Source of the DNA: a virus
Length of the DNA stretch: 64,000 bases
IMG/VR virus record: IMGVR_UViG_3300035698_026680
Span: 1-64,000 of that record
Strand: one strand, 5' to 3'
Shown here one piece after another: positions 23,752 to 60,555 of the stretch (positions are counted from its first letter, which is position 1; every line of letters starts with the position of its first letter). The position numbers and the translations under genes are program-made. Under the pieces are notes generated by a model. It ran no database searches. It was given only the letters and a program-made list of their open reading frames with translations, and was not told where the DNA came from.

Positions 23752-23827
23752 TGGAGCTAGTGGTTGGTCTCGAACCAACTGCCTTCTCGTTACAAAGGAG
23801 ATGCTCTGCCAGATGAGCTACACCAGC
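23752..23827 (-). tRNA. tRNA-Thr(TGT)
   Basis: cloverleaf; loop TTTGTAA; CCA encoded; C31-C39 mismatch. Confidence 0.9.
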
Positions 23828-24084
23828 TTATAAGTTCTTCCTGGGAACAAGACTGTAGCAATGTTCCCTGCATTCGTATCATAAACCACTATAAACTTCT
23901 TTCCTAGTAGAGAAACTTGATGGACTGTTCTACTAGGTGTTTGTCTTCCTAAAAAGATACTAATTCCGTTTTTAACCTGTTGGCAAAGTTTTCGATATTC
24001 TTTTCCGCTAATCCTAATATCATATCTCTCTAATAATCTTCTCCTAAAATGGATATGATTATTTCTCTTTTTTGATCTACCCAT
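23818..24084 (-). CDS. 88-aa tRNA-embedded protein, possible DUF4258/BECR-fold RNase
   Basis: ATG one base after the tRNA-Phe discriminator; HFRRRLLER and IVVYD..IATV motifs; stop inside tRNA-Thr. Confidence 0.6.
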   Translation of the reverse strand: MGRSKKRNNHIHFRRRLLERYDIRISGKEYRKLCQQVKNGISIFLGRQTPSRTVHQVSLLGKKFIVVYDTNAGNIATVLFPGRTYKLV

Positions 24085-24085
24085 G

Positions 24086-24160
24086 TGGGACTTTGTGGAA
24101 TCGAACCACAGCTTTCTGTTTTTCAGACAGACGCGCAATAACCAACTACGCTAAAGTCCC
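24086..24160 (-). tRNA. tRNA-Phe(GAA)
   Basis: TCTGT CTGAAAA ACAGA. Confidence 0.9.
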
Positions 24161-24165
24161 CTTTG

Positions 24166-24239
24166 AGCCCTGAGTCAGAATCGAACTGACGCATAGTGGG
24201 TTTGCAAGCCACCGCGTTAAACCACTTCGCCACCAGGGC
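24166..24239 (-). tRNA. tRNA-Cys(GCA)
   Basis: loop TTGCAAA; U73; C31-C39 mismatch. Confidence 0.9.
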
Positions 24240-24243
24240 TTAG

Positions 24244-24314
24244 TGACCCTACGGGGTTACGATCCCCGCCTTCTGGTTAGAAAGACCAGCGTCCTGCCAT
24301 TAGACTATAGGGCC
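24244..24314 (-). tRNA. tRNA-Glu(TTC), atypical
   Basis: CTGGT CTTTCTA ACCAG; U37; T-loop ATCGTAA. Confidence 0.75.
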
Positions 24315-24318
24315 TGAG

Positions 24319-24390
24319 TGACGCTACAGGGAATCGAACCCTGCCTGCTAAGTTGAGAACCTAGTGTCCTAACCGATAGACGATAGCGCC
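24319..24390 (-). tRNA. tRNA-Glu(CTC)
   Basis: CTAGG TTCTCAA CTTAG. Confidence 0.9.
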
Positions 24391-24394
24391 TTAG

Positions 24395-24485
24395 CGGAAG
24401 CAATAGGACTCGAACCTATGTTGCTGTTTGACGAGCAAACCAGTTTAGCAAACTGGCACGGCTAGCCTTCACCGAAACTACTTCC
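24395..24485 (-). tRNA. tRNA-Ser(GCT)
   Basis: CCAGT TTGCTAA ACTGG; long variable arm; G73; atypical D-arm. Confidence 0.85.
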
Positions 24486-24489
24486 ATGT

Positions 24490-24548
24490 AGCAGCGATAG
24501 ATTTTGTTCCAAACCGATCAAAATTCAGAAGTGTTCTCTATCGTTGCT
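24490..24548 (-). ncRNA. structured spacer hairpin (candidate ncRNA)
   Basis: 12-bp terminal stem AGCAACGATAGA/TCTATCGCTGCT with one mismatch; fills the Val-Ser spacer. Confidence 0.4.
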
Positions 24549-24549
24549 G

Positions 24550-24622
24550 TGCTCGATGACGGATTCGAACCGCCGACGCTCGGTATGTAAAACCGACGCT
24601 CTGGCCACTGAGCTAATCGAGC
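24550..24622 (-). tRNA. tRNA-Val(TAC)
   Basis: TCGGT TTTACAT ACCGA. Confidence 0.92.
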
Positions 24623-24626
24623 ATTG

Positions 24627-24698
24627 TAGGCCAAGTTGGGATCGAACCAACGACTCCCACTTCATCAGAGTGGTACTCTGCCACTGAGTTACTGGCCT
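24627..24698 (-). tRNA. tRNA-Ile(GAT)
   Basis: CCACT CTGATGA AGTGG; G37. Confidence 0.9.
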
Positions 24699-24703
24699 AT
24701 GTG

Positions 24704-24778
24704 TGCACCTAGTAGGACTCGAACCTACAGCCTACTGTTTCGAAGACAGTCGGCTCTGTCCAATTGAGCTATAAGTGC
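24704..24778 (-). tRNA. tRNA-Arg(TCG)
   Basis: ACTGT CTTCGAA ACAGT. Confidence 0.9.
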
Positions 24779-24782
24779 TTTG

Positions 24783-24856
24783 TGAGTCTGGATGGATTCG
24801 AACCATCGACACCCTAGTTAAGAGCTAGGTGCTCTGGCCAACTGAGCTACAGACCC
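24783..24856 (-). tRNA. tRNA-Lys(CTT)
   Basis: CCTAG CTCTTAA CTAGG. Confidence 0.95.
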
Positions 24857-24972
24857 TTGTTGAAATGATATCTAAGCCACCATTTATGAATCATTCTTGA
24901 CCAAAAGCCGTTTTTAGGAATCCTTTTATTTTTCCTTGTATTCCTGCTTTTGTTTTTCTTTTTATGATTCAT
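24847..24972 (-). CDS. 41-aa basic peptide between the two tRNA-Lys genes
   Basis: MNHKKKNKSRNTRKNKRIPKNGFWSRMIHKWWLRYHFNKGL; ATG right after tRNA-Lys(TTT); stop is T8-A9-G10 of tRNA-Lys(CTT). Confidence 0.5.
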   Translation of the reverse strand: MNHKKKNKSRNTRKNKRIPKNGFWSRMIHKWWLRYHFNKGL

Positions 24973-24973
24973 G

Positions 24974-25047
24974 TGAGTCCAGATGGAATCGAACCATCGA
25001 CCTGCAGGTTAAAAGCCTGTTGCTCTGCCGGACTGAGCTATGGACCC
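24974..25047 (-). tRNA. tRNA-Lys(TTT)
   Basis: CAGG CTTTTAA CCTG. Confidence 0.92.
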
Positions 25048-25049
25048 AA

Positions 25050-25292
25050 TTATCCGCTACTTAGGAAAATTCCTGGCATACAAGGACATTCAAAAGTATA
25101 AGGATCGCCCTTGACTTGTTTCAGCTTTTTTCCACAATTAGCGCATTTATTATTTTTTACTAGACTAAGAAGGTACTTGTTTGCCTTTTGGCAATCTTTA
25201 CAAGTATCTTGATTATGCCCCTTTTTCTTGCCAAGATTTTTCGTCAAATGTTCTAAACAAGGCTTAATTTTTTTCGGTGCATGCTTAATCAT
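25050..25292 (-). CDS. 80-aa Cys-rich (zinc-binding) tRNA-embedded protein
   Basis: CxxH, CxxC, CxxC, CxC; the A of ATG is the terminal A of the tRNA-Ser CCA. Confidence 0.6.
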   Translation of the reverse strand: MIKHAPKKIKPCLEHLTKNLGKKKGHNQDTCKDCQKANKYLLSLVKNNKCANCGKKLKQVKGDPYTFECPCMPGIFLSSG

Positions 25293-25381
25293 GGCGGAAG
25301 GTGTAGGACTCGAACCTACACGACCTTGCGGCCTGCTTGTTTTCAAGACAAGGGCGATATCCAATTACGCTTTAACCTTCC
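25292..25381 (-). tRNA. tRNA-Ser(TGA)
   Basis: CTTGT CTTGAAA ACAAG; long variable arm; G73; CCA encoded. Confidence 0.9.
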
Positions 25382-25385
25382 TTTG

Positions 25386-25456
25386 TCGCTAGGTCGGGAG
25401 TCGAACCCGAACTTTCAGATTATGAGCCTGATGTGCGGCCTTTACACTACCCAGCA
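25386..25456 (-). tRNA. tRNA-Met(CAT)
   Basis: TCAGG CTCATAA TCTGA; U1-G72. Confidence 0.85.
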
Positions 25457-25460
25457 TTTG

Positions 25461-25534
25461 TGCCTGAAAAGAGATTCGAACTCTTACAGTACCGGTTTTA
25501 AGCCGATTGTGTCTACCAATTGCACCATTCAGGC
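25461..25534 (-). tRNA. tRNA-Leu(TAA), short variable loop
   Basis: ATCGG CTTAAAA CCGGT; 5-nt variable loop. Confidence 0.88.
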
Positions 25535-25540
25535 TTTAGG

Positions 25541-25625
25541 CCAAGGAGTCGTAAGACCTTTCGCCAGAGCTAATTTTTATCTAGAAACAATTAGCAACTT
25601 CATCATCCATTTCAAGATGCCTTGG
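25541..25625. ncRNA. multi-stem structured spacer (candidate ncRNA)
   Basis: closing stem CCAAGG/CCTTGG enclosing three hairpins. Confidence 0.4.
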
Positions 25626-25698
25626 TAGGCGGGGCAGGAGTTGAACCTGCTTCCTTCTCTTTATAAGAGAGATGCTCCTTCCGTCAAGCTGACCGCCT
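25623..25698 (-). tRNA. tRNA-Ile(TAT)
   Basis: TCTCT CTTATAA AGAGA; CCA encoded. Confidence 0.85.
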
Positions 25699-25702
25699 AT
25701 AG

Positions 25703-25775
25703 TGCCTTCAACAGGAATCGAACCTGTAGTCTACTCCTTAGAAGGGAGTTGCTTTATCCGTTAAGCTACAAAGGC
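25703..25775 (-). tRNA. tRNA-Arg(TCT)
   Basis: ACTCC CTTCTAA GGAGT. Confidence 0.92.
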
Positions 25776-25779
25776 TTAG

Positions 25780-25851
25780 TGCGCCGACCAGGAATCGAAC
25801 CTGGGTCTAGGGCTTAGGAAGCCCCCATTCTATCCGCTAAACTACCAGCGC
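25780..25851 (-). tRNA. tRNA-Arg(CCT)
   Basis: GGGGC TTCCTAA GCCCT. Confidence 0.9.
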
Positions 25852-25853
25852 AT

Positions 25854-25946
25854 TCCTTGGCTTATTAATAAGTGACAGTGGCCGTCTGTCATGCAGTGGG
25901 AACTGCTCGTATTTTTTGACCCAGTGTTTCGCTGGGCTCCTTGGCT
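25854..25946. ncRNA. structured spacer bracketed by TCCTTGGCT direct repeats
   Basis: hairpins TGACAG/CTGTCA, GCAGT/ACTGC and CCCAG/CTGGG. Confidence 0.4.
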
Positions 25947-25947
25947 G

Positions 25948-26021
25948 TGCCTAAGATTGGATTCGAACCAACACTGTCGGGGTTTTGAATCCCGTATCTC
26001 TACCGATTGGATTACTTAGGC
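25948..26021 (-). tRNA. tRNA-Leu(CAA), short variable loop
   Basis: CGGG A TTCAAAA C CCCG; A31-C39 mismatch. Confidence 0.88.
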
Positions 26022-26025
26022 TTAA

Positions 26026-26121
26026 AAGAACTATGGGGGCGACAATCCCCATCGTACCGCTTTCGTTATCTTGCGACCTACTCACGACCCGCAGTAGAGC
26101 CTTTCTGCATTTATAGTTCTT
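26026..26121 (-). ncRNA. tRNA-like ncRNA without an anticodon arm
   Basis: AAGAACT/AGTTCTT acceptor-like stem; D-like GCAG/CTGC arm; T-like ATGGGG/CCCCAT arm. Confidence 0.45.
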
Positions 26122-26123
26122 AG

Positions 26124-26198
26124 TAGCCGATACAGGACTCGAACCTGTAAAACCTTGTTTCTAAAACAAGTATGTATACCAAATTCCATCAATCGGCC
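26124..26198 (-). tRNA. tRNA-Leu(TAG), short variable loop
   Basis: CTTGT TTTAGAA ACAAG; A37. Confidence 0.88.
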
Positions 26199-26245
26199 AT
26201 AAAGTGAGATATTATCAAAAAGAGAGATATTTTAAAGTGCAAATG

Positions 26246-26328
26246 TGCCGCCTATAGGAATCGAACCTATCTGGCCTTACGACAACAGCTTTACAGGCTG
26301 CCCCACCTCCTTAATGGACTACGACGGC
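26246..26328 (-). tRNA. tRNA-Tyr(GTA)
   Basis: GCAGC CTGTAAA GCTGT; long variable arm. Confidence 0.85.
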
Positions 26329-26370
26329 ATTAATCTATTTTAACACACCATTTCAATTAACCGCTTAAAA

Positions 26371-26468
26371 GAGACTCTCTAGTGTGGCTACTTCTACCAT
26401 TCTAGAGCGGTATGAATTTATCGAAACACGTGAAGGGCAAGTACTTCCCGACCTTCTCAAGCAGTCTC
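26371..26468. ncRNA. structured element upstream of the tRNA array
   Basis: GAGACT/AGTCTC closing stem; CTCTAG/CTAGAG and GAAGG/CCTTC arms. Confidence 0.3.
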
Positions 26469-26482
26469 ATCCAAATTGTTAA

Positions 26483-26614
26483 TTACTTTTTAACCCAAAG
26501 TCCATATTTCCCACAATTAGGACATTTAATTTGATAATGAGTTTTGCTCATTTTTTCAGCCCATGCATGAAATTGAATATATCCCTGTGGTTTTTTGGTA
26601 TGTTTACATTTCAT
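26483..26614 (-). CDS. 43-aa zinc-finger-like protein
   Basis: MKCKHTKKPQGYIQFHAWAEKMSKTHYQIKCPNCGKYGLWVKK. Confidence 0.6.
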   Translation of the reverse strand: MKCKHTKKPQGYIQFHAWAEKMSKTHYQIKCPNCGKYGLWVKK

Positions 26615-26783
26615 ATTGTCAATTGAAAGAAACAATCCCAGGGTAAGCATAATAAAAGTTACGATGATATCCCCGCGGATTCACCCAAACCGATTTTATT
26701 TTTGCCATTCGTATCGGACAAAACAAAACCGATGTCATTTCAAAGAGCAATTCCTTCTTACTTCCTTTTATCATATTACTTAT

Positions 26784-26812
26784 ATTATATCAAAAAGAGA
26801 GATATTTATCAC
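26784..26812 (-). promoter_or_regulatory. promoter of the minus-strand tRNA operon
   Basis: GTGATA-17-TATAAT with extended -10 TG. Confidence 0.7.
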
Positions 26813-26988
26813 GAGTTAGTTAGGCTTATGAGGGAGACACCACCCCACGCCTAGTAAATAATTCTAACAATAGCCCCCCCCGTCTAAATAGCGAGCATTA
26901 GCTAGTCTTTTCGTGAGTTTGAGTCCTAAGCCCTTATTTTACTTATAGGCAGTCTTGCTATGGAATAGTTTTATATAGTAATTGACAG

Positions 26989-27017
26989 TTGATTCTTATC
27001 TCCCCATTTGATATGAT
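26989..27017 (+). promoter_or_regulatory. divergent early promoter
   Basis: TTGATT-17-TATGAT with extended -10 TG. Confidence 0.65.
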
Positions 27018-27088
27018 ATATATAGAATACAAACAAAGCAAACAAATTAAATTACTTTTATCTCAGCTTATGAAAGGAGAATTATAAA

Positions 27089-27229
27089 ATGATTGCTAAA
27101 GATATATTCAAAGTTCAAAAGGCGCTTGCGCAGCAAGACGAATTTTACGAAGAAAATAAGTATATTTTTGAAGAAATAGTCAAGCTATTAAATGCAACAA
27201 GTCTTGACTTAAAGTTAATTAAAAAATAA
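27089..27229 (+). CDS. 46-aa hypothetical protein
   Basis: AAGGAG RBS; first ORF after the promoter; not in the track. Confidence 0.6.
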   Translation: MIAKDIFKVQKALAQQDEFYEENKYIFEEIVKLLNATSLDLKLIKK

Positions 27230-27303
27230 TTCGAGCTTGTTTTAGCTTACTAGCAATAGCGAGCTAAGACAAATTCAAATAACATAATTATTAAATTCAA
27301 ACT

Positions 27304-27504
27304 ATGAAAGTAGCAGACTTAAATATCAATCAATCGCTGAAAACTAAACGCATTCTTCTTCATCTTGCTTATCTTCTAGAAGAGAAAGTCAAAAACAAAA
27401 ATTGTAATTGCAAAGAGCATTACAATGGCATTATCAAAGATGCTTACGAATTAAACGATTTCTTTAATAAAAAGATTCAAGCTTATAAAGACGCAAGAGA
27501 ATAA
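27304..27504 (+). CDS. hypothetical protein
   Basis: ORF in a co-oriented run. Confidence 0.6.
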   Translation: MKVADLNINQSLKTKRILLHLAYLLEEKVKNKNCNCKEHYNGIIKDAYELNDFFNKKIQAYKDARE

Positions 27505-27540
27505 AAAGATAAATAAACAGATTGGGGGTGAGACACAAAT

Positions 27541-27750
27541 ATGATAGTAAAAGAGTTTAAAGCAAAAGCTAAAAAAGAAAACGGCTATACAGCTAATGGC
27601 GAATACAGAAAGTTCTATAATCAAGCGAAAAACGAGCTAGTTAAGCGCCATAACGACGAACACAAAGCGATTATGCTTGAGCTAGGCTATAAACCAGCGC
27701 CTAAGAAAGTAAAGAAAATAGAGAAGAAAGAAGTAGTTAAGAAACAATAA
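27541..27750 (+). CDS. hypothetical protein
   Basis: GGGGGTGA RBS. Confidence 0.65.
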   Translation: MIVKEFKAKAKKENGYTANGEYRKFYNQAKNELVKRHNDEHKAIMLELGYKPAPKKVKKIEKKEVVKKQ

Positions 27751-27913
27751 GAGCTTTATCTAGCTCTTTATACGCATAGAGAGCTAGGATAAGCCCCTTA
27801 AACTATAGGCTAAAACAGTTTTATGGTTTACCCCTATAGAAACTTAATGAATTAGGCTTAAAACGAGAAATAGCAAGAATTAACTATAGGATAACAGAAA
27901 GGAGATAATAGGC

Positions 27914-28159
27914 GTGGAATACACAAACAGCATATTCGTATTAGCTTTTACAGCAGGACTCTTTTGCTTAATAAGCGGAATAGAGATGAGCGTAGCAGAC
28001 GCTAGAAAGAAACTTAATAAACGCAATTACATGAGAGCTTATAGAGCTAATAAAAGCGTTAAAAGCGTTAAAATCAAGGCTAAAAGCGTTAAAAAAGATA
28101 TATTAGTAAATGATTTTAATGGAGAGAGTTTTAAGATTAAAAGGATAGCCTTAGCTTAA
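27914..28159 (+). CDS. small membrane-anchored basic protein
   Basis: AAGGAG RBS; N-terminal hydrophobic segment; KSV repeats. Confidence 0.6.
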   Translation: MEYTNSIFVLAFTAGLFCLISGIEMSVADARKKLNKRNYMRAYRANKSVKSVKIKAKSVKKDILVNDFNGESFKIKRIALA

Positions 28160-28254
28160 TTTTACAATCCTTTTACTCATTCTCTATAGTATTCTAGGTA
28201 GCAGAGATTAGCTATAAAACCTGCTACAAAAGCGTCATAAGACGAAAACAACGA

Positions 28255-28284
28255 GTGACTTTTTATCTCGGCTTATGATAAGAT
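28255..28284 (+). promoter_or_regulatory. probable phage promoter
   Basis: GTGACT-18-TAAGAT; ACTTTTATCTCRGCTTATGA core also at 27054-27073. Confidence 0.45.
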
Positions 28285-28331
28285 TATATAAATTAACAAT
28301 CTATAGCTAAAAAGAAAGAGGTGACGACTTT

Positions 28332-28550
28332 ATGCAGGATACAGACAATTTAAAGAAAGAGATTAGGCGATTTCGATGGTTGCTACAAGTAAAGAAAAAT
28401 GCTGTCGCATTGCCATCAAGGACGAGGCGATACTTAAATAGTGCGCGAGATAAACAAATTCTAGTATTGAAAGGCCAAGGGCTTTCCTATCACAAGATTT
28501 GCGGAATAGCTAGCCAGAAACAAAGCGAATTAGAATTGCTTTTCGATTAG
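28332..28550 (+). CDS. hypothetical protein, possible HTH
   Basis: GAGGTG RBS; RDKQILVLKGQGLSYHKI. Confidence 0.55.
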   Translation: MQDTDNLKKEIRRFRWLLQVKKNAVALPSRTRRYLNSARDKQILVLKGQGLSYHKICGIASQKQSELELLFD

Positions 28551-28644
28551 GGTTTTCCTTTGCCCATCTTCTTGGTGGGCAGAGATAAGATTCTAAAAGA
28601 GCTCTTTAATAATTAAATACTAAAGACGAGAGAAGGGAGAGTCT

Positions 28645-29199
28645 ATGACAACTTGGCAAGAAGAAAAAAATGCAGTAACCAAGGCACTATTCAATGAGTT
28701 AAAAGCGCTTACAAAAGAAAAAGTAACGCTTGAGAAAAAGGATGAACTCTTGCGTGTTAGGCTAACCACTGATTATCCAATCTATGTTAGACCAAAAGGC
28801 TACGACAATCGATATTCTTTTACTTTAAGTAATCAACTACCTTTTATTGGTAGCGGAGATTTTGGTACTAAAGTAGAAAAAGCGCCCAATAAAGTAGGAG
28901 TCCTGAGTGCTAAGAAGATTAGTGATTGGGTTGAGTATCTCAGCAAGGGCCATGATGTCTTAGTCAAAGAGAGTGCAATTCGCGGAGCTAAGGTCGACGC
29001 TTTTTTGGTTAGAATCAACAAGATAAAGGGAGTACGCTTCGGGGACGACAGTATGTCGGGCGAAATTATCAGAAACGGACTTGTATTCAAATTTGAGATC
29101 AGTAATTGTGGTTACATTAGCCAGAAGATTAAAGTCCGCTATACGATTGAAAATAATCTTGATAGTTTCTTGAAACTATCGAAGAACAAGCTCACTTAG
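28645..29199 (+). CDS. hypothetical protein
   Basis: 184-aa ORF with RBS. Confidence 0.75.
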   Translation: MTTWQEEKNAVTKALFNELKALTKEKVTLEKKDELLRVRLTTDYPIYVRPKGYDNRYSFTLSNQLPFIGSGDFGTKVEKAPNKVGVLSAKKISDWVEYLSKGHDVLVKESAIRGAKVDAFLVRINKIKGVRFGDDSMSGEIIRNGLVFKFEISNCGYISQKIKVRYTIENNLDSFLKLSKNKLT

Positions 29200-29251
29200 T
29201 TATTTTAAAGCGCTTGTCTTTAGTATTTAGCTATTAAAAGGAAAGGAGAAT

Positions 29252-29434: not shown

Positions 29435-29461
29435 TTAAATCAGATTGGGGGTGATACGAGT

Positions 29462-29671: not shown

Positions 29672-29757
29672 AGTAAGGATTTGACTGATAAGATAAAATA
29701 ATTTGTCTTATCAGATGAAACCATTACCAAGTTGATTAGATCGGGGTGATTACAAGT

Positions 29758-47693: not shown

Positions 47694-48452
47694 ATGAGTA
47701 AAATATTCGCAATATCCGATATTCATGGGTGCTATGATGAATTGATGGCTTTAATGAAAAAGCTACCCTTGAATCCAATAAAAGACAAAATGGTCTTTCT
47801 TGGTGACTATATTGATCGTGGTCATCAGTCAATGCAGGTAGTCAAGCAATTAATAAAATGGGATAAGAAGTATCCCCATTGGGAATTTCTCTATGGGAAC
47901 CACGAAGACCTGATGCTTGATGCTTTAGTCTATAAAGGTCGGATCTATCATTCCTACGATCTCTGGTACGGTCAGGGGGGCAAAGAAACAGCTAAGAGTT
48001 ACTTTCGTAAGAACATGAATAAATACGACATGGCTATTAGTCAACCGAAGGATCACATAAAATGGAAACATTTAGATTGGCTCAGAAAACGACCAATTTA
48101 TCACGAAACGGAGAAATACTTTTTTGTCCACGCTGCGGTTTTGCCAAATATAACCCTGGCGGAGTTCAAGCATCATATTGATAATAACGAAGCTCCTGTT
48201 AGGGGAGCGGCGATTTGGGCAAGAGAAGACTTTATTAATTGTAAATACGATTGGGGGAAAAAGATTATTTTTGGACACACCGCCAATAGTAGCAATCGAA
48301 AATGGGGAAAACCTTTTGAGCCGATTGTGATGGAAAACAAAATAGGAATAGATACGGCAGTTTGTCCAGGTCGATGCAATAAATTAACGGCAGTCGAATT
48401 GCCAATAGAAAAGTTTTACTTTCAGGAGTACATATGGAAAAACAAAATATAA
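47694..48452 (+). CDS. metallophosphoesterase (Ser/Thr phosphatase-like)
   Basis: DIHG, GDYIDRG, GNHE, HA, GHT and IDT motifs. Confidence 0.92.
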   Translation: MSKIFAISDIHGCYDELMALMKKLPLNPIKDKMVFLGDYIDRGHQSMQVVKQLIKWDKKYPHWEFLYGNHEDLMLDALVYKGRIYHSYDLWYGQGGKETAKSYFRKNMNKYDMAISQPKDHIKWKHLDWLRKRPIYHETEKYFFVHAAVLPNITLAEFKHHIDNNEAPVRGAAIWAREDFINCKYDWGKKIIFGHTANSSNRKWGKPFEPIVMENKIGIDTAVCPGRCNKLTAVELPIEKFYFQEYIWKNKI

Positions 48453-52646: not shown

Positions 52647-52939
52647 AACTAACAAAAGAAGAAAGAAACCTTTTACTGTTTCTCGAATACACTGCAGTAG
52701 ATCAATGGGGCTGGGTCAAAGACATAAGACATTTAAACGCAGGAGATCTTGAGATTATGAAACAGTGGAATAAGTCTGGTTTTGTTTTATCAAAGCGAGC
52801 CCATAAAAGTAAAGGCAAGCTAACCCAACTCACCTATGTTGTTAAACTTTCTCCTGAAGCATGGGGGATGGCTCACAAGCTAAGGAGAGAAAAAGCAGAA
52901 AGACATATTCCAGAAAAATTTAATAAGGAGAAAATATGA
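52643..52939 (+). CDS. hypothetical protein
   Basis: coupled ORF. Confidence 0.7.
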   Translation: MKLTKEERNLLLFLEYTAVDQWGWVKDIRHLNAGDLEIMKQWNKSGFVLSKRAHKSKGKLTQLTYVVKLSPEAWGMAHKLRREKAERHIPEKFNKEKI

Positions 52940-54117
52940 AAGTAATAAACAAAAAAAACTATAAAGTACCAGTTTTTAATTGGTGTCCAGAAATTGAAGA
53001 TGGTGCTATGGCTCAAATAGACAACTTGGCACAATTGCCATTTGTATTTAAAAGAATTTCAATAATGAGTGACTGCCATCAAGGGTACGGGATGCCTATT
53101 GGTGGAGTTATGGCCGCCGAAGGCGTAATAGTTCCAAATGCTGTCGGTGTCGATATTGGTTGCGGAATGTGTGCGGTCAAAAGCAATTTGCGAGCAATTG
53201 ATACCGATTTGCTTAAAAAGATAATGGGGGAGATTAGGAAAGTAATTCCTTTGGGATTTAATAAGCATGATAAAGAACAAGATATCAAATTAATGCCCGA
53301 CAATGAAGAATTAAAGCTAATAGTTTATCAAGAGTATAACAACGCCCTAAAATCTCTCGGCTCTCTCGGTGGTGGTAACCACTTTATCGAAATCCAAAAA
53401 GGCGACGATGGTCATATTTGGATTATGATTCATTCTGGAAGTAGAAACTTGGGGTTCAAGGTAGCCCAACACTACAACAAACTGGCGGTTGAATTAAACG
53501 AAAAATGGAAAAGCGAAGTTCCTAAGAGTTGGGGGTTAGCTTTTTTACCAGTGGATTCTCAGGAAGGTCAAGACTACATAAAAGAAATGCAATACTGTGT
53601 TGACTTTGCTTTGGCCAATCGCAAGTTGATGATGGAAAGAGTGAAGGGAATTGTTGCTAAGGTTATTCAGGAAAGTTGGATTGATGGAATAATATCTATT
53701 GGATTCGAGCCAATGATAAATATAGCCCACAACTATGCTTCTTTAGAGAATCACTTTGGGAAGAATGTATGGGTACATAGAAAAGGGGCCACAAAAGCGA
53801 CCAAGGGGTTAGTAGGCATAATTCCTGGCTCACAAGGGACTAAAAGCTATATTGTCGAAGGCTTGGGCAATAAAGAGTCGTTTATGTCTTGTTCTCATGG
53901 AGCGGGTAGAAAAATGAGTCGAAGCCAAGCAAGGAAAGAACTAAGCCTTGTGGAAGAACAATACAAAATGGAAGGTATTGTTCACGGGATCAGAAGCGCT
54001 CAAGACTTAGATGAAGCCCCAGGATCTTATAAAGACATTGGCAAAGTGATGGAAAATCAAAAAGACCTAGTTAAAATTTTAGTTGAGTTAACACCACTAG
54101 CTGTTATTAAAAGTTAA
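52936..54117 (+). CDS. rtcB: RtcB RNA ligase
   Basis: DCHQGYG.PIG, VGVDIGCG, GGGNHFIE, HSGSR, HRKGA and SCSHGAGR motifs. Confidence 0.97.
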   Translation: MKVINKKNYKVPVFNWCPEIEDGAMAQIDNLAQLPFVFKRISIMSDCHQGYGMPIGGVMAAEGVIVPNAVGVDIGCGMCAVKSNLRAIDTDLLKKIMGEIRKVIPLGFNKHDKEQDIKLMPDNEELKLIVYQEYNNALKSLGSLGGGNHFIEIQKGDDGHIWIMIHSGSRNLGFKVAQHYNKLAVELNEKWKSEVPKSWGLAFLPVDSQEGQDYIKEMQYCVDFALANRKLMMERVKGIVAKVIQESWIDGIISIGFEPMINIAHNYASLENHFGKNVWVHRKGATKATKGLVGIIPGSQGTKSYIVEGLGNKESFMSCSHGAGRKMSRSQARKELSLVEEQYKMEGIVHGIRSAQDLDEAPGSYKDIGKVMENQKDLVKILVELTPLAVIKS

Positions 54118-55149: not shown

Positions 55150-55505
55150 TGTACGGAAAAGTAGCTATCGACCAATTCGGATTGTTTATTTGCGAGTTTC
55201 CCGTTAGGGGGGCGAATGGCGAACTGGAAACTTGCAAGCATAGGGCCAAAGATCTAGTAAGGCATCTTAGAAGTCATGGAATAAGCTCCAAAGACTATAA
55301 AAAGATGCTCGGGCTAAATCGGAAGGAGTCGCTCCTTAGTGAAGAAACACTAAAAAGTCTCAGGAAGGCCAACATCAAGTACAAAAATTATGAGAATCTC
55401 GAAAAGGGCAAACCGTTTAGATTTAGAAAGGGCAGTTCCCATGCACAAAAGTATGATCGAAGCGAACAAACAAAAAAGAGATTACGGGGCTTGCGAAAAA
55501 AGTAA
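55149..55505 (+). CDS. MucR/Ros-like zinc-finger protein
   Basis: ICE..C..L.RHLRSHGI...DYKK..GL. Confidence 0.65.
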   Translation: MYGKVAIDQFGLFICEFPVRGANGELETCKHRAKDLVRHLRSHGISSKDYKKMLGLNRKESLLSEETLKSLRKANIKYKNYENLEKGKPFRFRKGSSHAQKYDRSEQTKKRLRGLRKK

Positions 55506-55519
55506 AAAAAGATTATAAT
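55491..55519 (+). promoter_or_regulatory. sigma70-type promoter
   Basis: TTGCGA-17-TATAAT. Confidence 0.6.
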
Positions 55520-55539
55520 ATACTCAGAAAAGGAAAATT

Positions 55540-55824
55540 ATGAAAACAGAAGAAAAAGAGAAGAAATCCTACGATACGACCAACTTCCACATTTTTGTTT
55601 GGCTTTTAATGAACGATGTTCCCTTGATTAAAGTCTTTTGGGCCAGTGATAAATCGGGTGACAGAGATCAGGCACATTTTGTTTTTGAAGACTTCCCTAA
55701 AAGAAAAGAATTGATTGACAAGTTTTTTGAACAAAAGCAATTACAAAAGTGGATTATAACTACTCAGGAAGCTAAGTCTCGAATGTACGCCAATCGGACA
55801 CCTGTTGAATATGACCGTAAATAG
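55540..55824 (+). CDS. DUF5659-like protein
   Basis: Y.T.NF.I...L......L..FVF pattern. Confidence 0.55.
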   Translation: MKTEEKEKKSYDTTNFHIFVWLLMNDVPLIKVFWASDKSGDRDQAHFVFEDFPKRKELIDKFFEQKQLQKWIITTQEAKSRMYANRTPVEYDRK

Positions 55825-56794
55825 CCTAGACAAAGTTGTTCTGAAATTAAACAAGAAATTCGGCCAAAACACTATCGGCAGGGTTAATGTAATGCCGGAT
55901 CTTAAAATCAAAAAGATTTCTTCTGGATCTCCCTATCTTGATTGGGCTCTTGGTGGTGGTTGGCCTTTAGGTAGGTCAATCGAACTATATGGCCCTGCTT
56001 CCGCAGGCAAATCTCTAACTGCTCTAAGAACCATTATCGAAGCTCAGAAATTAGGCAAAAGATGCGTTTATTTAGATGCTGAAAATACCTTCGATCCCGA
56101 CTTCGCTAAGTCAGTTGGCGTTGACACTGATAAGCTAGTTGTCTCTCAAATGACGGGGGGAGAAAATGTATTTGATACAATTAATCTTCTTTTAGAATCC
56201 GATGTTTCTATTATTGTTGTTGATACTGTGGCTTCATTACTTCCTGAATACGAAGAAAACGAAGAAACGGGGAAAATGACAATAGGCTTGCATGCTCGAT
56301 TGATGAGTAAGGCAATGAGAAAAATAACAGGGAAAGCTTCTAAAAACAAGACTCTCATTTTTTTCATTAATCAGATAAGAGAGAAAATAGGGGGCTATGG
56401 AAATCCTGAAATAACAACAGGTGGTAGAGCCTTAACATTTTATGCTTCGTTAAGAGTTGAAGTTAGGCGCGGTGAATTTTTAACTGAAGGCAAGAAAAAA
56501 ATCGGCCATCAAATCAAATTTAAGGTTACTAAATCTAAAATCGGCCAACCCTGGCGAAATGGCTACTTCTTATTTTACTGGCCTGACTCTCAAAATCCCA
56601 ATCTTGAATTATTTGATAATGCCGATGAGTTAGTCTCAATGTTGCTAATTCAAGGTAAAATTAAAAGGCGTGGGGCTTACTATGATGTTGTTGGTAAGAC
56701 TTTTCAGGGCAGAGAAGAATTAGAACAGGAAGTTAGAAGTAATCCAAAATTTAATAAAAAATTAACAGAGCTATGGAATCCACAGGACCAGTAA
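55811..56794 (+). CDS. recA: RecA-family recombinase
   Basis: GPASAGKS, YLDAE, ARLMSKAMRK, FINQIR and TTGGRALTFYAS motifs. Confidence 0.95.
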   Translation: MTVNSLDKVVLKLNKKFGQNTIGRVNVMPDLKIKKISSGSPYLDWALGGGWPLGRSIELYGPASAGKSLTALRTIIEAQKLGKRCVYLDAENTFDPDFAKSVGVDTDKLVVSQMTGGENVFDTINLLLESDVSIIVVDTVASLLPEYEENEETGKMTIGLHARLMSKAMRKITGKASKNKTLIFFINQIREKIGGYGNPEITTGGRALTFYASLRVEVRRGEFLTEGKKKIGHQIKFKVTKSKIGQPWRNGYFLFYWPDSQNPNLELFDNADELVSMLLIQGKIKRRGAYYDVVGKTFQGREELEQEVRSNPKFNKKLTELWNPQDQ

Positions 56795-57327
56795 GTATCT
56801 TTGAAGAAGACCTAAAATTTAGCGAAGATGCAACAACAGAACAAATTATCAAAGAGATTTTGCTTAAATACATTCCTGGGGCAATCGAAGTAAAAAAAGC
56901 CGAGAAATGGCAAGATAAACAGGGAACGGATTATTGGGTTCATTGCGGTACTAAAAGACCACCTTTATCAATAGATGCAAAGGTAAGAAGTGTCGATCCC
57001 GTAGAAGAAATGAATAAGGGAAAAATGGGATTTAAGGACGATTTAGCACTTGAAACATGGAGCAAAATTGGAACACAGGTTGGCTGGACAAGAGACAGAA
57101 AAAAAAGAACCGATTATATTCTTTGGTTTTTTGAGTCAACTAGAAGATGGGCTCTTGTTCCGTTCATAATGTTATGCGGAGTTTTTGAAAAATATTGGGA
57201 AGAATGGAAAGGAATTTATAAGGTGAAGACCCACACCTGCAGGGGAGATCTTGACACTTGGGAAAGTGAATGCGTTTTTGTTCCTAGACAAGTAATTTGG
57301 GACAAAATGCAAGAAATGTATGGTTAA
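56773..57327 (+). CDS. PD-(D/E)xK nuclease-like protein
   Basis: DKQGTD..IDAK.R..LETWS..GW. Confidence 0.6.
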   Translation: MESTGPVSIFEEDLKFSEDATTEQIIKEILLKYIPGAIEVKKAEKWQDKQGTDYWVHCGTKRPPLSIDAKVRSVDPVEEMNKGKMGFKDDLALETWSKIGTQVGWTRDRKKRTDYILWFFESTRRWALVPFIMLCGVFEKYWEEWKGIYKVKTHTCRGDLDTWESECVFVPRQVIWDKMQEMYG

Positions 57328-57350
57328 TTAATAAACGAAAGGGGGCTAAA

Positions 57351-57512
57351 ATGGGACCATCATTAGAAAAACAAATTGAATCAATAATGAAAAAAGTGAG
57401 AGATTATCAAAAAGAAGCTGGTCGATCAGAAAAAGGAAGAATGTGGGCGATTGTTAACACTCATTTAGAAACAGCAAAACTGTACGCTAAAGAAATTAAA
57501 ACAATAGAATAA
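57351..57512 (+). CDS. small helical hypothetical protein
   Basis: GGGGG RBS; GR..AI..T.LETA. Confidence 0.55.
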   Translation: MGPSLEKQIESIMKKVRDYQKEAGRSEKGRMWAIVNTHLETAKLYAKEIKTIE

Positions 57513-57546
57513 ACTAATCATTATATTAAAACGAAAGGATATTGAA

Positions 57547-58047
57547 ATGTCACGATCATTAAACAGAATAGAATTAATTGGGAACTTGACGAGAGATGTA
57601 GAGTTAAAATATACTCCACAGGGAACAGCGGTCTGTACTTTTTCAGTCGCTACCAATAGGCAATGGACTGATTCTCAGGGAAATAAAAAGGATGAAGCAA
57701 CCTTTCACCGAATAGTTGCTTGGGCTAAACTAGCTGAGATTTGTTCCCAATATCTTGCTAAGGGAAGAAAAGTCTATATCGCAGGTCGATTATCTAATAG
57801 ACGATGGAAAGACGATCAGGGAGTTGACCATTTCGCGACAGAAACAGTCGCTTCTGATATGATTATCTTAGATCGAAAAGATCAAGGGGCAGGTCAACCA
57901 CCCGCTCCCCAGCCACCCGCTCCAACTCAAGGAGTAGCACAATCTGAGCCTGCACAAGCAGCCCCAGAGCCTGCTCCTGCTCAACCAGAGCCAGAGCAAA
58001 CAAGTATTAAACAGGCTGAAAAAGTCTTTAAAGCAAAAGCAGTTTAA
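57547..58047 (+). CDS. ssb: single-stranded DNA-binding protein
   Basis: LNR..LIGNL.RD.E..YT..G; FHRIVAW.KLAE; KG.KVY..GRL; P/Q linker. Confidence 0.95.
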   Translation: MSRSLNRIELIGNLTRDVELKYTPQGTAVCTFSVATNRQWTDSQGNKKDEATFHRIVAWAKLAEICSQYLAKGRKVYIAGRLSNRRWKDDQGVDHFATETVASDMIILDRKDQGAGQPPAPQPPAPTQGVAQSEPAQAAPEPAPAQPEPEQTSIKQAEKVFKAKAV

Positions 58048-58066
58048 TTGTTAACAACCTAAGGGG

Positions 58067-58333
58067 GTGATAGTTATGGTGTTTTTAGCAAGCGGAAATG
58101 GTCCTGGCAGTAAAGTTGGACCTATTGTGGTGGTAGAAGAAACTCCAACAGCGGTTCCAACAGAAACCCTTGAAGTTAAGCCTACAGAAATTGCTACCGA
58201 ATCAGCTCAATCAACTCCATTACCTACCCCAACTCCCGAAGACGGTGGTCTTGGCGTTGTTGGTTGGTGTCTTTTAGGAATAGTCGGATTGTTCGTTTTG
58301 GTTTTAGGTGCGAAAGCAGTTTTTAAGAAATAA
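58067..58333 (+). CDS. P/T-rich stalk protein with C-terminal TM anchor
   Basis: PTPTP run, then a hydrophobic helix and KK. Confidence 0.65.
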   Translation: MIVMVFLASGNGPGSKVGPIVVVEETPTAVPTETLEVKPTEIATESAQSTPLPTPTPEDGGLGVVGWCLLGIVGLFVLVLGAKAVFKK

Positions 58334-58641
58334 TGGAGAAGTGGCAAAAAAAGGAAAAGGATGATGCTAAATCTTTTGGTGGTAAAAGAACTCCCAAAAG
58401 CGGTGGTTATTGGTCTTTCCCTGGAGATGTAACCACCAAGCATTTCCTTATTGATAGTAAAACTACAGAAAAAAAAGGCTTTAGAGTTACAGAAAGCATG
58501 TGGAAAAAGATCTACTATGAAGCCCTAAAAGCAAGAAAGCTACCAGTTCTTTCAATTTCACTTATCAATGAGGATATCGAACTGGTAGTTCTTGATAAGA
58601 ACGATTTTATTTCTTTTCTTAAAGATGATAGGATGAAATAG
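58333..58641 (+). CDS. Holliday-junction-resolvase-like PD-(D/E)xK nuclease
   Basis: E...A...GG...P.SG..GDV....IDSK. Confidence 0.75.
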   Translation: MEKWQKKEKDDAKSFGGKRTPKSGGYWSFPGDVTTKHFLIDSKTTEKKGFRVTESMWKKIYYEALKARKLPVLSISLINEDIELVVLDKNDFISFLKDDRMK

Positions 58642-58891
58642 ATATGAAAAACAATGTACTCACTAACAATTTTGATTTAGTTATTTATAGTAAAGAATAT
58701 CCCCAAGTCCCTGAAGGCTCACTAATTCCTAAAGTTAAAAACTCTCCTGTAATTTCCGATGATGTGCTAAAATAAGCGACTATAATGCTTATTCTTCTTG
58801 CAGGAATAGGAGTGTCAATCTTGTTTGTGATAGTCTTTATTTTTCTCTTTAAAGGAGAGCAAAGATTCCCGCCACAAGAAAAATAGAAGAC

Positions 58892-58920
58892 TTGAGTAAA
58901 AGAATACTTTGCTGTACTAT
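58892..58920 (+). promoter_or_regulatory. sigma70-type promoter
   Basis: TTGAGT-17-TACTAT. Confidence 0.45.
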
Positions 58921-58948
58921 GTTCCTATAGTTATAGAAAGGAGATATA

Positions 58949-59188
58949 GTGAGACTTTATCAATACGACGATATTAAAAAACTCAATCAAGCACTAGGAA
59001 GTTTTAAAAGAAATACACTCAAAGTAATTGATGTTAAAATCATAACAGTCGAAGGTAAGAATCAATTTTTCGTAGTGGCAGATCCGCCTTACGACTCAAA
59101 ACCAAAGAAAAAGAAGGCCGAAAAGGAAAAGGTAGAGAAAAAAGTAGAAGTAAAAGAGCCCGCTAAGAAGAAAACGGAGAAAAAATGA
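58949..59188 (+). CDS. hypothetical protein with K/E-rich tail
   Basis: AAGGAG RBS with GTG start. Confidence 0.65.
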   Translation: MRLYQYDDIKKLNQALGSFKRNTLKVIDVKIITVEGKNQFFVVADPPYDSKPKKKKAEKEKVEKKVEVKEPAKKKTEKK

Positions 59189-59451
59189 AAGAAATTAAAT
59201 ATGTAGAATGTCAGGGTTGCGGACAAATTCATTACATTGTCGGTAAAAAAGAAGCAGAAACTTTGAAGAAAAAGGGTTATAAAGCAGACGGATTTTCCGA
59301 TAGAAATATGCAGCACTGTTCAAACTGTGGTTCAAAAAAGCAATTCTCAGGAGTAACTCAATCTTATGCGAATCAATATTCGCCAGGTGGAGAAATTCAC
59401 CCGATTCTCTTAACCGATGAGAAGCTTAAAGAACCAAAAGTCAAACCTTAG
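59185..59451 (+). CDS. zinc-ribbon protein
   Basis: CQGCG..CSNCG. Confidence 0.65.
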   Translation: MKEIKYVECQGCGQIHYIVGKKEAETLKKKGYKADGFSDRNMQHCSNCGSKKQFSGVTQSYANQYSPGGEIHPILLTDEKLKEPKVKP

Positions 59452-59624
59452 CGAGTTTCTGGAAGAAATGGCACAATTAGAAGGACTCTTGAAGTCTTCT
59501 ATTAAAGTGTCATTAAAAAGAAACATTGAGTGGTATTGTAGTAATAGGATTAAACGATACTACAGACAGTACCGAAAGAATCGTGGTGAAAGCTAGACAG
59601 ATAGTGTATAATAAAAAACAATAA

Positions 59625-59692
59625 AGGTCGGGCGCTGGGCGCAAGAAGCACTCCAAACGCTTCTCCGCCGGGTTCAATCCCTGGACGGCCTG
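59625..59692 (+). tRNA. tRNA-Trp(CCA) with miniature D-arm
   Basis: loop CTCCAAA; G73; D-arm GCGC-TGG-GCGC; 68 nt. Confidence 0.7.
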
Positions 59693-59747
59693 CAAAAACT
59701 TAACGGGCAACTATTGAGAAGTGTGAGAGCAGGCCACTTCTCAAAAA

Positions 59748-59818
59748 GCGGGGTTAGTTGATTGGCTCAACGAGTCCCTTCCAAGGATTAAAAGCGAGTT
59801 CGATTCTCGCATCCCGCT
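59748..59818 (+). tRNA. tRNA-Gly(TCC)
   Basis: AGTCC CTTCCAA GGATT; U73. Confidence 0.9.
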
Positions 59819-59868
59819 CTATGAGTATTAAAGGAGAGTTTTACCATCGAAGCACAATCACCAAACAT

Positions 59869-59941
59869 GGTGTCGGTAGCTTAGTGGTTGAAGCGCTGGC
59901 CTGTGAAGCCAGAGACGGGAGTTCGATTCTCCTTCGATACC
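59869..59941 (+). tRNA. tRNA-His(GTG)
   Basis: CTGGC CTGTGAA GCCAG; G-1:C73. Confidence 0.92.
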
Positions 59942-59988
59942 CAAGTAGCACTTTAAATCAACAGAATTAATTACATTAAATCGGATAT

Positions 59989-60059
59989 TCCGAGATAGTG
60001 TAATGGCAGCACGGCTGGCCTTGGACCAGCTAATGTAGGTTCGACTCCTACTCTCGGAA
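59989..60059 (+). tRNA. tRNA-Gln(TTG)
   Basis: GCTGG CCTTGGA CCAGC; C33. Confidence 0.85.
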
Positions 60060-60068
60060 CACAGAAAA

Positions 60069-60139
60069 TGGCGTGTAGTATAACGGCAACACGCTCGGCT
60101 GTTAACCGAGAAATCTGGGTTCGATTCCCAGCGTGCCAG
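60069..60139 (+). tRNA. tRNA-Asn(GTT)
   Basis: CTCGG CTGTTAA CCGAG; G73. Confidence 0.9.
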
Positions 60140-60144
60140 CAAAT

Positions 60145-60321
60145 GCGGCGATGGTGTAGTGGTAGCACATCCTTTATCGAGCAACACCCTGGGACAAGCT
60201 CCCCAGTTCGGTACCGCTCACAATATAAATTCACTAGGTTTAAAGGTCTAGAGTTTTCTCGAGAACCTTTAAGCGGATGAAGTTACAATGGAAGACAAGG
60301 GTTCGAATCCCTTTCGCCGCT
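60145..60321 (+). ncRNA. tRNA-Gly-like RNA with a 113-nt structured segment in place of the anticodon loop
   Basis: perfect acceptor GCGGCGA/TCGCCGC plus U73; normal D-arm; T-arm AAGGG TTCGAAT CCCTT; insert 60175-60287. Confidence 0.8.
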
Positions 60322-60327
60322 CAAAAT

Positions 60328-60400
60328 GGGCTTGTAGCTCAGTCGGAAGAGCATTCGCTTTGCAAGCGAAAGGCCGAGAGTTCGATTCTCTCCAGGTCCA
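60328..60400 (+). tRNA. tRNA-Ala(TGC)
   Basis: TTCGC TTTGCAA GCGAA; G3-U70. Confidence 0.95.
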
Positions 60401-60405
60401 CATAT

Positions 60406-60479
60406 CAGGGATTGGCGGAGTTGGCCACCGCGCTCGGTTTGGAACCGAGAGATCATAGGTTCGAATCCTGTATCCCTGA
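60406..60479 (+). tRNA. tRNA-Pro(TGG)
   Basis: CTCGG TTTGGAA CCGAG; A37. Confidence 0.92.
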
Positions 60480-60484
60480 CTAAA

Positions 60485-60555
60485 GGCTTGTTGATTTAAT
60501 GGTAGAATGTCGTCTTGTCAAGGCGATTGCAGGAGTTCGATTCTCCTACAGGCCG
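60485..60555 (+). tRNA. tRNA-Asp(GTC)
   Basis: TCGTC TTGTCAA GGCGA; G73. Confidence 0.9.

Follow-up and report, generated by a model that had tools for sequence, protein, structure and literature searches.

Introduction

The nearest described counterpart of the system reported here is Escherichia phage T5 (Tequintavirus; NC_005859), a long-tailed phage in the ~100-120 kb range with, as annotated, 25 transfer RNA (tRNA) genes for all 20 amino acids. These genes occupy one region alongside the early genes, with interspersed small open reading frames (ORFs), HNH endonuclease genes and 'tRNA-like stable RNAs with unknown functions'. They include an initiator tRNA, UNN tRNAs for Thr, Gly, Ser, Leu, Ala, Val and Pro (for Arg no anticodon is stated), redundant species (three Ser, two Gln) and a long-arm tRNA-Leu of 85 nt; their codon coverage is incomplete as annotated (one Leu, one Arg). 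We describe here two tRNA arrays in a 64,000-nt stretch (the window), which corresponds to positions 1 to 64,000 of the IMG/VR record IMGVR_UViG_3300035698_026680, an uncultured long-tailed phage from a salt lake. The window phage resembles T5 in type, in genome size and in the UNN tRNAs, small ORFs and tRNA-like RNA that it carries. It differs in having two arrays on opposite strands, 28 unique anticodons and short-arm tRNA-Leu, with no initiator and no detected HNH gene. The terminases of the two phages show no sequence relationship; the best cultured match of the window phage's (34% identical) lies in actinobacterial and Vibrio phages.

A wider survey (Morgado and Vicente, 2019; PMC6409571) describes, in phage genomes of 72-617 kb, clusters with 15-37 tRNA genes and a density of 2-10 per kb, eight of which hold all 20 isotypes; Xanthomonas phage XacN1, with 56 tRNA genes, also covers every amino acid (PMC5852040). 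Most of these sets are redundant or confined to a single cluster, whereas the window phage needs both arrays and has no duplicate anticodon. Bacterial L-arrays, such as the trn operon of Anabaena PCC 7120, are long, horizontally mobile sets of supernumerary tRNAs that are linked to rtcB by neighbourhood and regulation and act under translational stress; similar arrays occur in phages (PMC8421152). Co-regulation with rtcB is a feature of L-arrays. The combination of an HNH homing endonuclease and stress-responsive promoter repeats that marks them was not found in the window phage.

One U34 tRNA per four-codon box, the pattern of the window phage, is also that of Mycoplasma and other Mollicutes, plastids and mitochondria, and animal mitochondria share with it a tRNA-Leu without a long arm (PMC9976931). 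In these superwobble systems, however, the tRNAs are the sole set and include the initiator, whereas the phage has the host's full pool at infection and carries four extra C34 tRNAs. Why phages carry tRNAs is debated between codon compensation, host tRNA decay and escape from tRNA-cleaving defences. Phage tRNAs are known, or have been suggested, to counteract such defences (PMC10264068, PMC11464382, PMC11555353), and individual T5 tRNAs neutralise them (PMC11464382, PMC11555353).

A complete set of 28 tRNA genes in two arrays

The source genome is complete and AT-rich (102,499 bp, 36.6% GC). The exact 127-bp direct repeat at its ends (1-127 and 102373-102499) indicates a complete genome, circularly assembled or terminally redundant, and it holds the tape measure, head-tail adaptor, tail protein and terminase genes of a tailed phage. 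All 16 runs that hold its DNA are salt-lake metagenomes. Contigs from four salt-lake DNA runs reproduce the minus array described below with zero differences, covering most of it in pieces, and no reliable structural variant was seen over it in these four runs; the only apparent joints had short sides and were read as tRNAs of other organisms.

tRNA genes were called by ARAGORN at its default and at a relaxed threshold, and with the Rfam tRNA model (RF00005) at its gathering score. Default ARAGORN gives 27 genes in the window and the same 27 across the whole genome: a minus-strand group of 20 spans 23752-26328 and a plus-strand group of seven spans 59748-60556. With an atypical tRNA-Trp called at the relaxed threshold, the plus array comprises eight genes (59625-60556) and the total becomes 28 (Table 1). 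The gathering score is reached by 25 of the 27 default genes (25/28 overall); the other two, the long-arm Ser(GCU) and Tyr, are ARAGORN calls with sub-threshold tRNA-Sec matches on the Rfam side. That the genes fold as genuine tRNAs is supported by Rfam for 25, by default ARAGORN for these two and by covariation for Trp. No further tRNA, nor any other Rfam family, was found in the remaining 38.5 kb (64-102.5 kb). One weak ARAGORN call, a 'Ser(GCU)' at 65375-65469, falls within an ORF of the plus strand, lacks Rfam support and was discarded as a false positive.

The minus array, with 20 genes in 2,577 bp (7.8 per kb), lies well within the limits used to define tRNA gene clusters (at least 15 genes, at least two per kb); the plus array, with eight genes in 932 bp, is dense enough but has too few genes on its own. 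The gene list bears out an earlier note, made from the letters of the window alone, that had described two opposite arrays of 20 and eight genes with no amino acid in common, one UNN tRNA for each of the eight four-codon boxes (UAG, UAC, UGA, UGG, UGU, UGC, UCG and UCC) and a single CAT tRNA. Redundant tRNAs elsewhere would have weakened that description, and ARAGORN found none in the 102,499 bp. All 20 isotypes are covered by 28 distinct anticodons with zero redundancy, the coverage of Trp hinging on the atypical gene. The note was also right that these anticodons could in principle decode all 61 sense codons, given four-way reading by U34. The set is not minimal, as it had been called: 24 elongators suffice under superwobble, and the phage has Leu(CAA), Lys(CUU), Glu(CUC) and Arg(CCU) in addition. 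It is non-redundant and near-minimal. The U34 pattern that had suggested a superwobble design is present, but the same pattern is ordinary for phage tRNAs, as in T5.

If the 28 genes were divided 20/8 at random, the two groups would share no amino acid with P=0.009. Isoacceptor pairs within the genome are 58-77% identical, compared with a median of 60% over all tRNA pairs; they are therefore not recent duplicates, which rules out recent duplication as the source of the clean partition. All 61 sense codons are used by the phage, with a preference for A/U-ending ones (AGA makes up 57% of Arg, AUA 28% of Ile and UUA 33% of Leu codons), and for each phage tRNA there is a matching NNA codon or some other codon in use.

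Structure and identity elements of the tRNAs

The tRNA-Trp(CCA) gene was missed by the Rfam model even at E<=10. Its cloverleaf has a 4-bp D stem, a 3-nt D loop and a 6-bp anticodon stem, and a Trp gene of 69-71 nt stands at the head of the array in three other lineages. In the alignment of the four sequences, 97.6% of cells are paired (31-45% in slid controls) and ten of 21 base pairs have changed on both sides (0-1 in slid controls), while the loop CUCCAAA and the discriminator G73 are invariant. Because it is conserved and covaries in four lineages, the gene is, on this comparative evidence, genuine despite the Rfam miss.

An ordinary 7-nt anticodon loop is present in 27 of the 28 genes. 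The loops carry Y32, U33 and R37 except in Gln(UUG), which has C33 where its relatives have U33, and in Glu(UUC), which has U37 and also a T-loop AUCGUAA; these two tRNAs may be impaired or specially adapted. The identity elements (Table 1; in addition G73 in Trp, Asp, Asn and both Ser, U73 in Cys, and long arms in Ser and Tyr) fit bacterial synthetases by published rules (PMC9976931). The His, Asn and Asp tRNAs of the plus array are species in which queuosine is normally found.

The three tRNA-Leu are unusual. They measure 75-76 nt, with a 5-nt variable loop in place of the long arm, which is universal in tRNA-Leu outside animal mitochondria (PMC9976931). They keep A73, a AAUUGGUAGA-type D-loop (A15, G18G19, A20a) and U48, and these are the determinants of E. 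coli LeuRS, for which the long arm is dispensable (PMC9976931). Short tRNA-Leu also occur in the complete relative G004 described below and in four other phage lineages among sequences collected for other purposes; Leu genes of 73-79 nt without the long variable arm, with A73 and a Leu-type D loop, were seen in several unrelated phage arrays (L017, L036, L068, L072, L082 and L103). The tRNA-Ser in those sampled phage arrays almost always keep the arm, so that loss in Leu and retention in Ser match the requirements of LeuRS and SerRS. A 73-nt tRNA-Tyr was seen in L025-L029.

Dependence on the host

The note had inferred full replacement of the host pool, which the gene content does not support. 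The sole CAT tRNA, judged by its U1-G72 and by an anticodon stem (UCAGG/UCUGA) that lacks the three G-C pairs, is an elongator and not initiator-like, in contrast to T5; no initiator is therefore encoded. Among relatives, initiator-like CAT tRNAs were noticed in L037 (3150-3219, C1xA72) and, with a GGG/CCC anticodon stem, in G004 (L017 2579-2653). CCA is encoded in three of the 28 genes (Thr, Ser(UGA) and Ile(UAU)), and no aminoacyl-tRNA synthetase, CCA-adding enzyme, tRNA nuclease or host-shutoff gene was found among the ~40 larger ORFs scanned, which include RtcB, RecA, SSB, Rad52, MoxR/VWA and a phosphoesterase. In superwobble systems the set is the sole decoder and supplies the initiator, whereas here host tRNAs are present in the cell.

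Shine-Dalgarno motifs precede 44% of the phage ORFs, compared with a background of 10%, a weak hint at a host that uses such sites. A DNA search against cultured phages returned generic tRNA matches only, and RecA in the Atlas returned viral clusters alone.

Two conserved sites with variable content

The terminase places the phage in an uncultured family of 37 IMG/VR loci (63-84% identical), whose GC content is 32.5-36.6% throughout. Two relatives are complete, and both keep the two sites in both orientations. G003 (100.8 kb) has Asp, Cys and Ser in its antisense array and Trp, Gly, His, Gln, Asn and a tRNA-like RNA in its sense array (8-9 tRNAs in total); G004 (115 kb) has 22 antisense and eight sense tRNAs (30 in total). 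The clean partition of amino acids does not hold across the family. G004 has Pro(UGG) in both arrays, His and Asp in the large array and Cys in the small one, together with two Gly and two CAT tRNAs. The sense site of other relatives holds one (Pro), one (Gly), two, three, six, seven or at least 16 tRNAs, and a 55-kb relative fragment expected to span both sites holds two. tRNAs with the same anticodon are 55-83% identical between genomes. The sites being kept while their content varies, the two tRNA hot spots are conserved; the content, its completeness and the amino-acid partition are not.

Genomic setting of the arrays

All ORFs of at least 150 aa outside the arrays are on the plus strand, and the 20-gene minus array is therefore the only leftward transcription unit. 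On its left lies the last late gene, an M23 peptidase, with tail genes further to that side; on its right, the plus-strand early genes begin near 27089. The two arrays flank this early module, which contains MoxR/VWA, Rad52, RtcB, RecA and SSB, the latter three upstream of the plus array. A resolvase-like gene and, further downstream, the terminase follow the plus array.

An exact 20-nt element occurs in two copies and nowhere else in the genome, one per promoter-like site of the minus strand and not in tandem (Table 1). The site at 26784-26812 is presumed to be the start of the leftward unit and that at 26209-26232 an internal promoter. For the plus array, the TATAAT hexamer upstream of tRNA-Trp, picked out by eye, is a possible promoter; the scan lists a weaker overlapping site.

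No family was found for the five small minus-strand ORFs in Pfam or PHROG, and no HNH/homing endonuclease or other nuclease domain. The 55-aa ORF (26483-26650) has a CxxC zinc-ribbon-like motif. It shares with the cysteine-rich 80-aa ORF a CxNCGK motif and a 22-nt stretch that is 86% identical, with only a sub-threshold CapR-domain match, and the two are likely paralogues. The idea of a leader peptide containing all 20 amino acids that would gate the array was rejected, since the upstream ORFs are no more diverse than chance: the 51-aa ORF has 18 kinds of residue and the 55-aa ORF 19 (P=0.38 and 0.20 against equally long windows in the phage's own proteins). A 42-aa ORF that precedes the plus array, itself read by eye, has 15 kinds.

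Phage T4 repairs tRNA with Pnkp/Rnl1 against the anticodon nuclease PrrC. RtcB joins 3'-P to 5'-OH ends, a chemistry unlike that of the T4 ligase. Like T4, and comparable to bacterial RtcB operons, the window phage carries, besides its own tRNAs, the gene of an RNA ligase capable of sealing cut tRNAs; unlike T4, it has no clearly identified kinase/phosphatase partner. A calcineurin-like phosphoesterase (47694-48452, plus strand) matches NinI-type phosphatases best and also the phosphoesterase part of a phage 'RNA ligase' family, and might serve RtcB as an end-healing partner. In this family the window phage and G004 have RtcB, and G003 lacks it. The G004 homologue (G004:C1:12355-14457, minus strand) consists of two matching parts within one 714-aa frame, and the G003 terminase (G003:C1:58296-62018, plus strand) of three parts in a 1250-aa frame; both look like intein insertions.

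Table 1. Features of the two tRNA arrays and their surroundings, with window positions (bits, scores against the Rfam tRNA model)
Feature	Position	Strand	Details	Support
Two-way intrinsic terminator	23695..23728	.	Between late M23-peptidase operon and end of minus array	
tRNA-Thr(UGU)	23752..23827	-	Encodes CCA; last gene of leftward unit	ARAGORN, Rfam 55.5 bits
88-aa ORF	23818..24084	-	Inside array	No family match
tRNA-Phe(GAA)	24085..24160	-		ARAGORN, Rfam 65.4 bits
tRNA-Cys(GCA)	24165..24239	-	U73	ARAGORN, Rfam
tRNA-Glu(UUC)	24243..24314	-	Unusual U37, T-loop AUCGUAA	ARAGORN, Rfam
tRNA-Glu(CUC)	24318..24390	-		ARAGORN, Rfam
tRNA-Ser(GCU)	24394..24485	-	Long variable arm, G73	ARAGORN; sub-threshold tRNA-Sec in Rfam
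tRNA-Val(UAC)	24549..24622	-		ARAGORN, Rfam
tRNA-Ile(GAU)	24626..24698	-		ARAGORN, Rfam
tRNA-Arg(UCG)	24703..24778	-		ARAGORN, Rfam
tRNA-Lys(CUU)	24782..24856	-	77% identical to Lys(UUU)	ARAGORN, Rfam
41-aa ORF	24847..24972	-	Basic; inside array	No family match
tRNA-Lys(UUU)	24973..25047	-		ARAGORN, Rfam
80-aa ORF	25050..25292	-	Cysteine-rich; inside array	
tRNA-Ser(UGA)	25292..25381	-	Long arm, encodes CCA	ARAGORN, Rfam 34 bits
tRNA-Met(CAU)	25385..25456	-	Elongator type; U1-G72, anticodon stem without GGG/CCC	ARAGORN, Rfam
tRNA-Leu(UAA)	25460..25534	-	75 nt, 5-nt variable loop, A73, D-loop AAUUGGUAGA	ARAGORN, Rfam
tRNA-Ile(UAU)	25623..25698	-	For AUA; encodes CCA	ARAGORN, Rfam 45.9 bits
tRNA-Arg(UCU)	25702..25775	-		ARAGORN, Rfam 69.6 bits
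tRNA-Arg(CCU)	25779..25851	-		ARAGORN, Rfam
tRNA-Leu(CAA)	25947..26021	-	75 nt, no long arm	ARAGORN, Rfam
tRNA-Leu(UAG)	26123..26198	-	76 nt, no long arm	ARAGORN, Rfam
20-nt repeat copy 2, then GATAAT	26209..26232	-	Just upstream of Leu(UAG)	
tRNA-Tyr(GUA)	26245..26328	-	Bacterial type, long arm; first tRNA of leftward unit	ARAGORN
Two overlapping small ORFs, 51 and 55 aa	26483..26774	-	Between promoter and first tRNA	
Promoter-like site GTGATA-17-TATAAT with TG	26784..26812	-	Overlaps copy 1 of the exact 20-nt repeat	
RtcB RNA ligase (tRNA repair/splicing type)	52936..54117	+	Early region	2e-118; 3.7e-111
TATAAT hexamer	59608..59613	+	12 nt upstream of tRNA-Trp	By eye
Atypical tRNA-Trp(CCA)	59625..59693	+	69 nt	Relaxed ARAGORN; covariation
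tRNA-Gly(UCC)	59748..59819	+	U73, G1-C72, C2-G71, G3-C70	ARAGORN, Rfam
tRNA-His(GUG)	59870..59942	+	Encoded G-1 at 59869, C73	ARAGORN, Rfam
tRNA-Gln(UUG)	59989..60060	+	C33 replacing U33	ARAGORN, Rfam
tRNA-Asn(GUU)	60069..60140	+		ARAGORN, Rfam
tRNA-like RNA	60145..60322	+	~105-nt insert; not counted as decoder	ARAGORN, structure, relatives
tRNA-Ala(UGC)	60328..60401	+	G3-U70	ARAGORN, Rfam 71.3 bits
tRNA-Pro(UGG)	60406..60480	+	C1-G72	ARAGORN, Rfam
tRNA-Asp(GUC)	60485..60556	+	G73	ARAGORN, Rfam

A tRNA-like RNA with a structured insert

The earlier tally had overlooked a ninth gene of the plus array, a tRNA-like RNA of 178 nt between Asn and Ala. It has a perfect 7-bp acceptor stem and normal D and T arms, and a structured insert of ~105 nt replaces the anticodon loop. 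Copies stand in the same place in G003, L048/L049 and L052 (L015 3426-3596, L048 8104-8274 and L052 748-925), always directly 3' of a tRNA in the sense array. In sequence the acceptor and T stems of the copies vary yet remain paired, the acceptor stems by compensatory changes, and the hairpin CUAGG-ACAAGCUC-CCUAG is nearly invariant among them, with CUGGG/CCCAG in the window phage. ARAGORN proposes an intron-containing Ser(CGA), which we rejected, the Gly-like acceptor stem not suiting it and the copies sharing no anticodon. A group I intron would also need more than ~105 nt, and the sole Rfam match, to YrlA, scores 17.6 bits. The tRNA-like stable RNAs of T5 may be analogous.

Function of the arrays

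We consider it probable that the two arrays form a T5-type elongator complement, accessory to the host's tRNAs, which buffers an AT-rich phage against mismatch with the host tRNA pool and against depletion or cleavage of that pool. From the gene content, tRNA structure and synteny observed in the genome and the variability of its relatives, we infer the transcription units, the charging and the physiological role as follows. The complete elongator set is split over two conserved hot spots at the borders of the early/replication region. Transcription of the minus array would start at the two promoter-like copies, diverging from the rightward early genes, and end at the two-way terminator behind the last late gene; the plus array, in sense orientation, closes the early region shortly ahead of the genes for DNA modification and packaging. 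Maturation and charging of the transcripts would fall to the host's RNase P, 3'-trimming and CCA-adding activities, modification enzymes and synthetases. The tRNAs would then make elongation on A/U-ending phage codons largely insensitive to which host tRNAs are present and how intact they are, combining codon compensation with insurance against tRNA depletion or cleavage, and RtcB could possibly re-ligate cut tRNAs. The set is accessory and evolves through gains and losses. It does not decode autonomously, since the host's initiator tRNA is still required to start translation.

Several observations weigh against this interpretation. None of the 16 runs that hold the phage is an RNA run. The codon argument draws on the codon usage of the phage side. 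The Trp, Gln (C33) and Glu(UUC) tRNAs are non-canonical and may function poorly. In five of the eight four-codon boxes the codon used most is NNU, which U34 reads least well; the phage therefore probably still profits from host tRNAs. The link between RtcB and the arrays is weak as well, because only five of 47 other phage RtcB loci have at least five tRNAs within 10 kb.

Pure codon compensation would make the set a top-up of NNA/NNG and AUA/AGR decoders that are scarce in a higher-GC host, its completeness being a by-product of a wide gap in base composition. The low GC content of the phage and its sampled relatives, the A/U-ending codons and the UNN, UAU and UCU tRNAs, classic compensating species as in T5, speak for it. 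Nevertheless, relatives of equal GC content carry 1-9 tRNAs, Met, Trp, Phe and Cys (unsplit or unbiased boxes) are not required by compensation, and the higher-GC host is an assumption; we regard this account as possible but somewhat unlikely. The full replacement favoured by the earlier note, in which the host elongator pool is eliminated or lost and late genes are translated wholly on the 28 phage tRNAs with four-way wobble at U34, draws on the non-redundant coverage of 20 amino acids and, by wobble, 61 codons, on the similar 30-tRNA set of G004 and on RtcB in both full-set genomes. It seems unlikely, given the missing initiator, 25 of 28 genes without encoded CCA, no tRNA nuclease or host-shutoff gene among the scanned ORFs, relatives of like architecture with 1-9 tRNAs and the inefficiency of superwobble on abundant NNU/NNC codons. 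We give an equally low likelihood to a tRNA-pool substitution module, in which late elongation would run essentially on streamlined phage tRNAs (the three tRNA-Leu without the long variable arm, the tRNA-Trp with its 3-nt D loop) that escape host nucleases by their altered shape, RtcB would re-seal cut ones and the tRNA-like RNA would act as decoy or regulator. If true, the arrays would be a coordinated module, beyond mere supplementation.

Selfish or neutral accretion, with insertion or recombination hot spots gathering tRNA cassettes, possibly helped by the small ORFs, would explain why both sites vary so much among relatives with 63-84% identical terminases and why same-anticodon tRNAs in relatives are so divergent (55-83%), and the interspersed small ORFs recall the HNH genes of the T5 tRNA region. 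However, the array ORFs yielded no homing endonuclease domain, 28 genes have accumulated without a single redundant anticodon and with identity elements intact, and the covariation of Trp indicates purifying selection on function; accretion alone is quite improbable. Still less credible is a non-decoding role, as decoys or sponges for host tRNA nucleases or as regulatory RNAs. The conserved tRNA-like RNA without a usable anticodon loop points that way, as do the tRNA-like stable RNAs of T5, and a sponge has been suggested for bacterial arrays (PMC8421152); yet 27 of the 28 genes have ordinary 7-nt anticodon loops, with U33 and a purine at 37 except in Gln and Glu(UUC), and intact synthetase identity elements, as decoders should have.

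Complete phage tRNA sets being already known from T5, the window genome adds no new principle, and its more unusual details are the short-arm tRNA-Leu, the mini-D-arm tRNA-Trp and the insert-bearing tRNA-like RNA. The short-arm Leu and the covarying Trp offer testable examples of the trimming of phage tRNAs with synthetase identity kept. The family as a whole is a natural series, with the same architecture and GC content and 1-2, 8-9, 28 or 30 tRNAs at the same two sites, which could separate the explanations for phage-borne tRNAs once the hosts are known.

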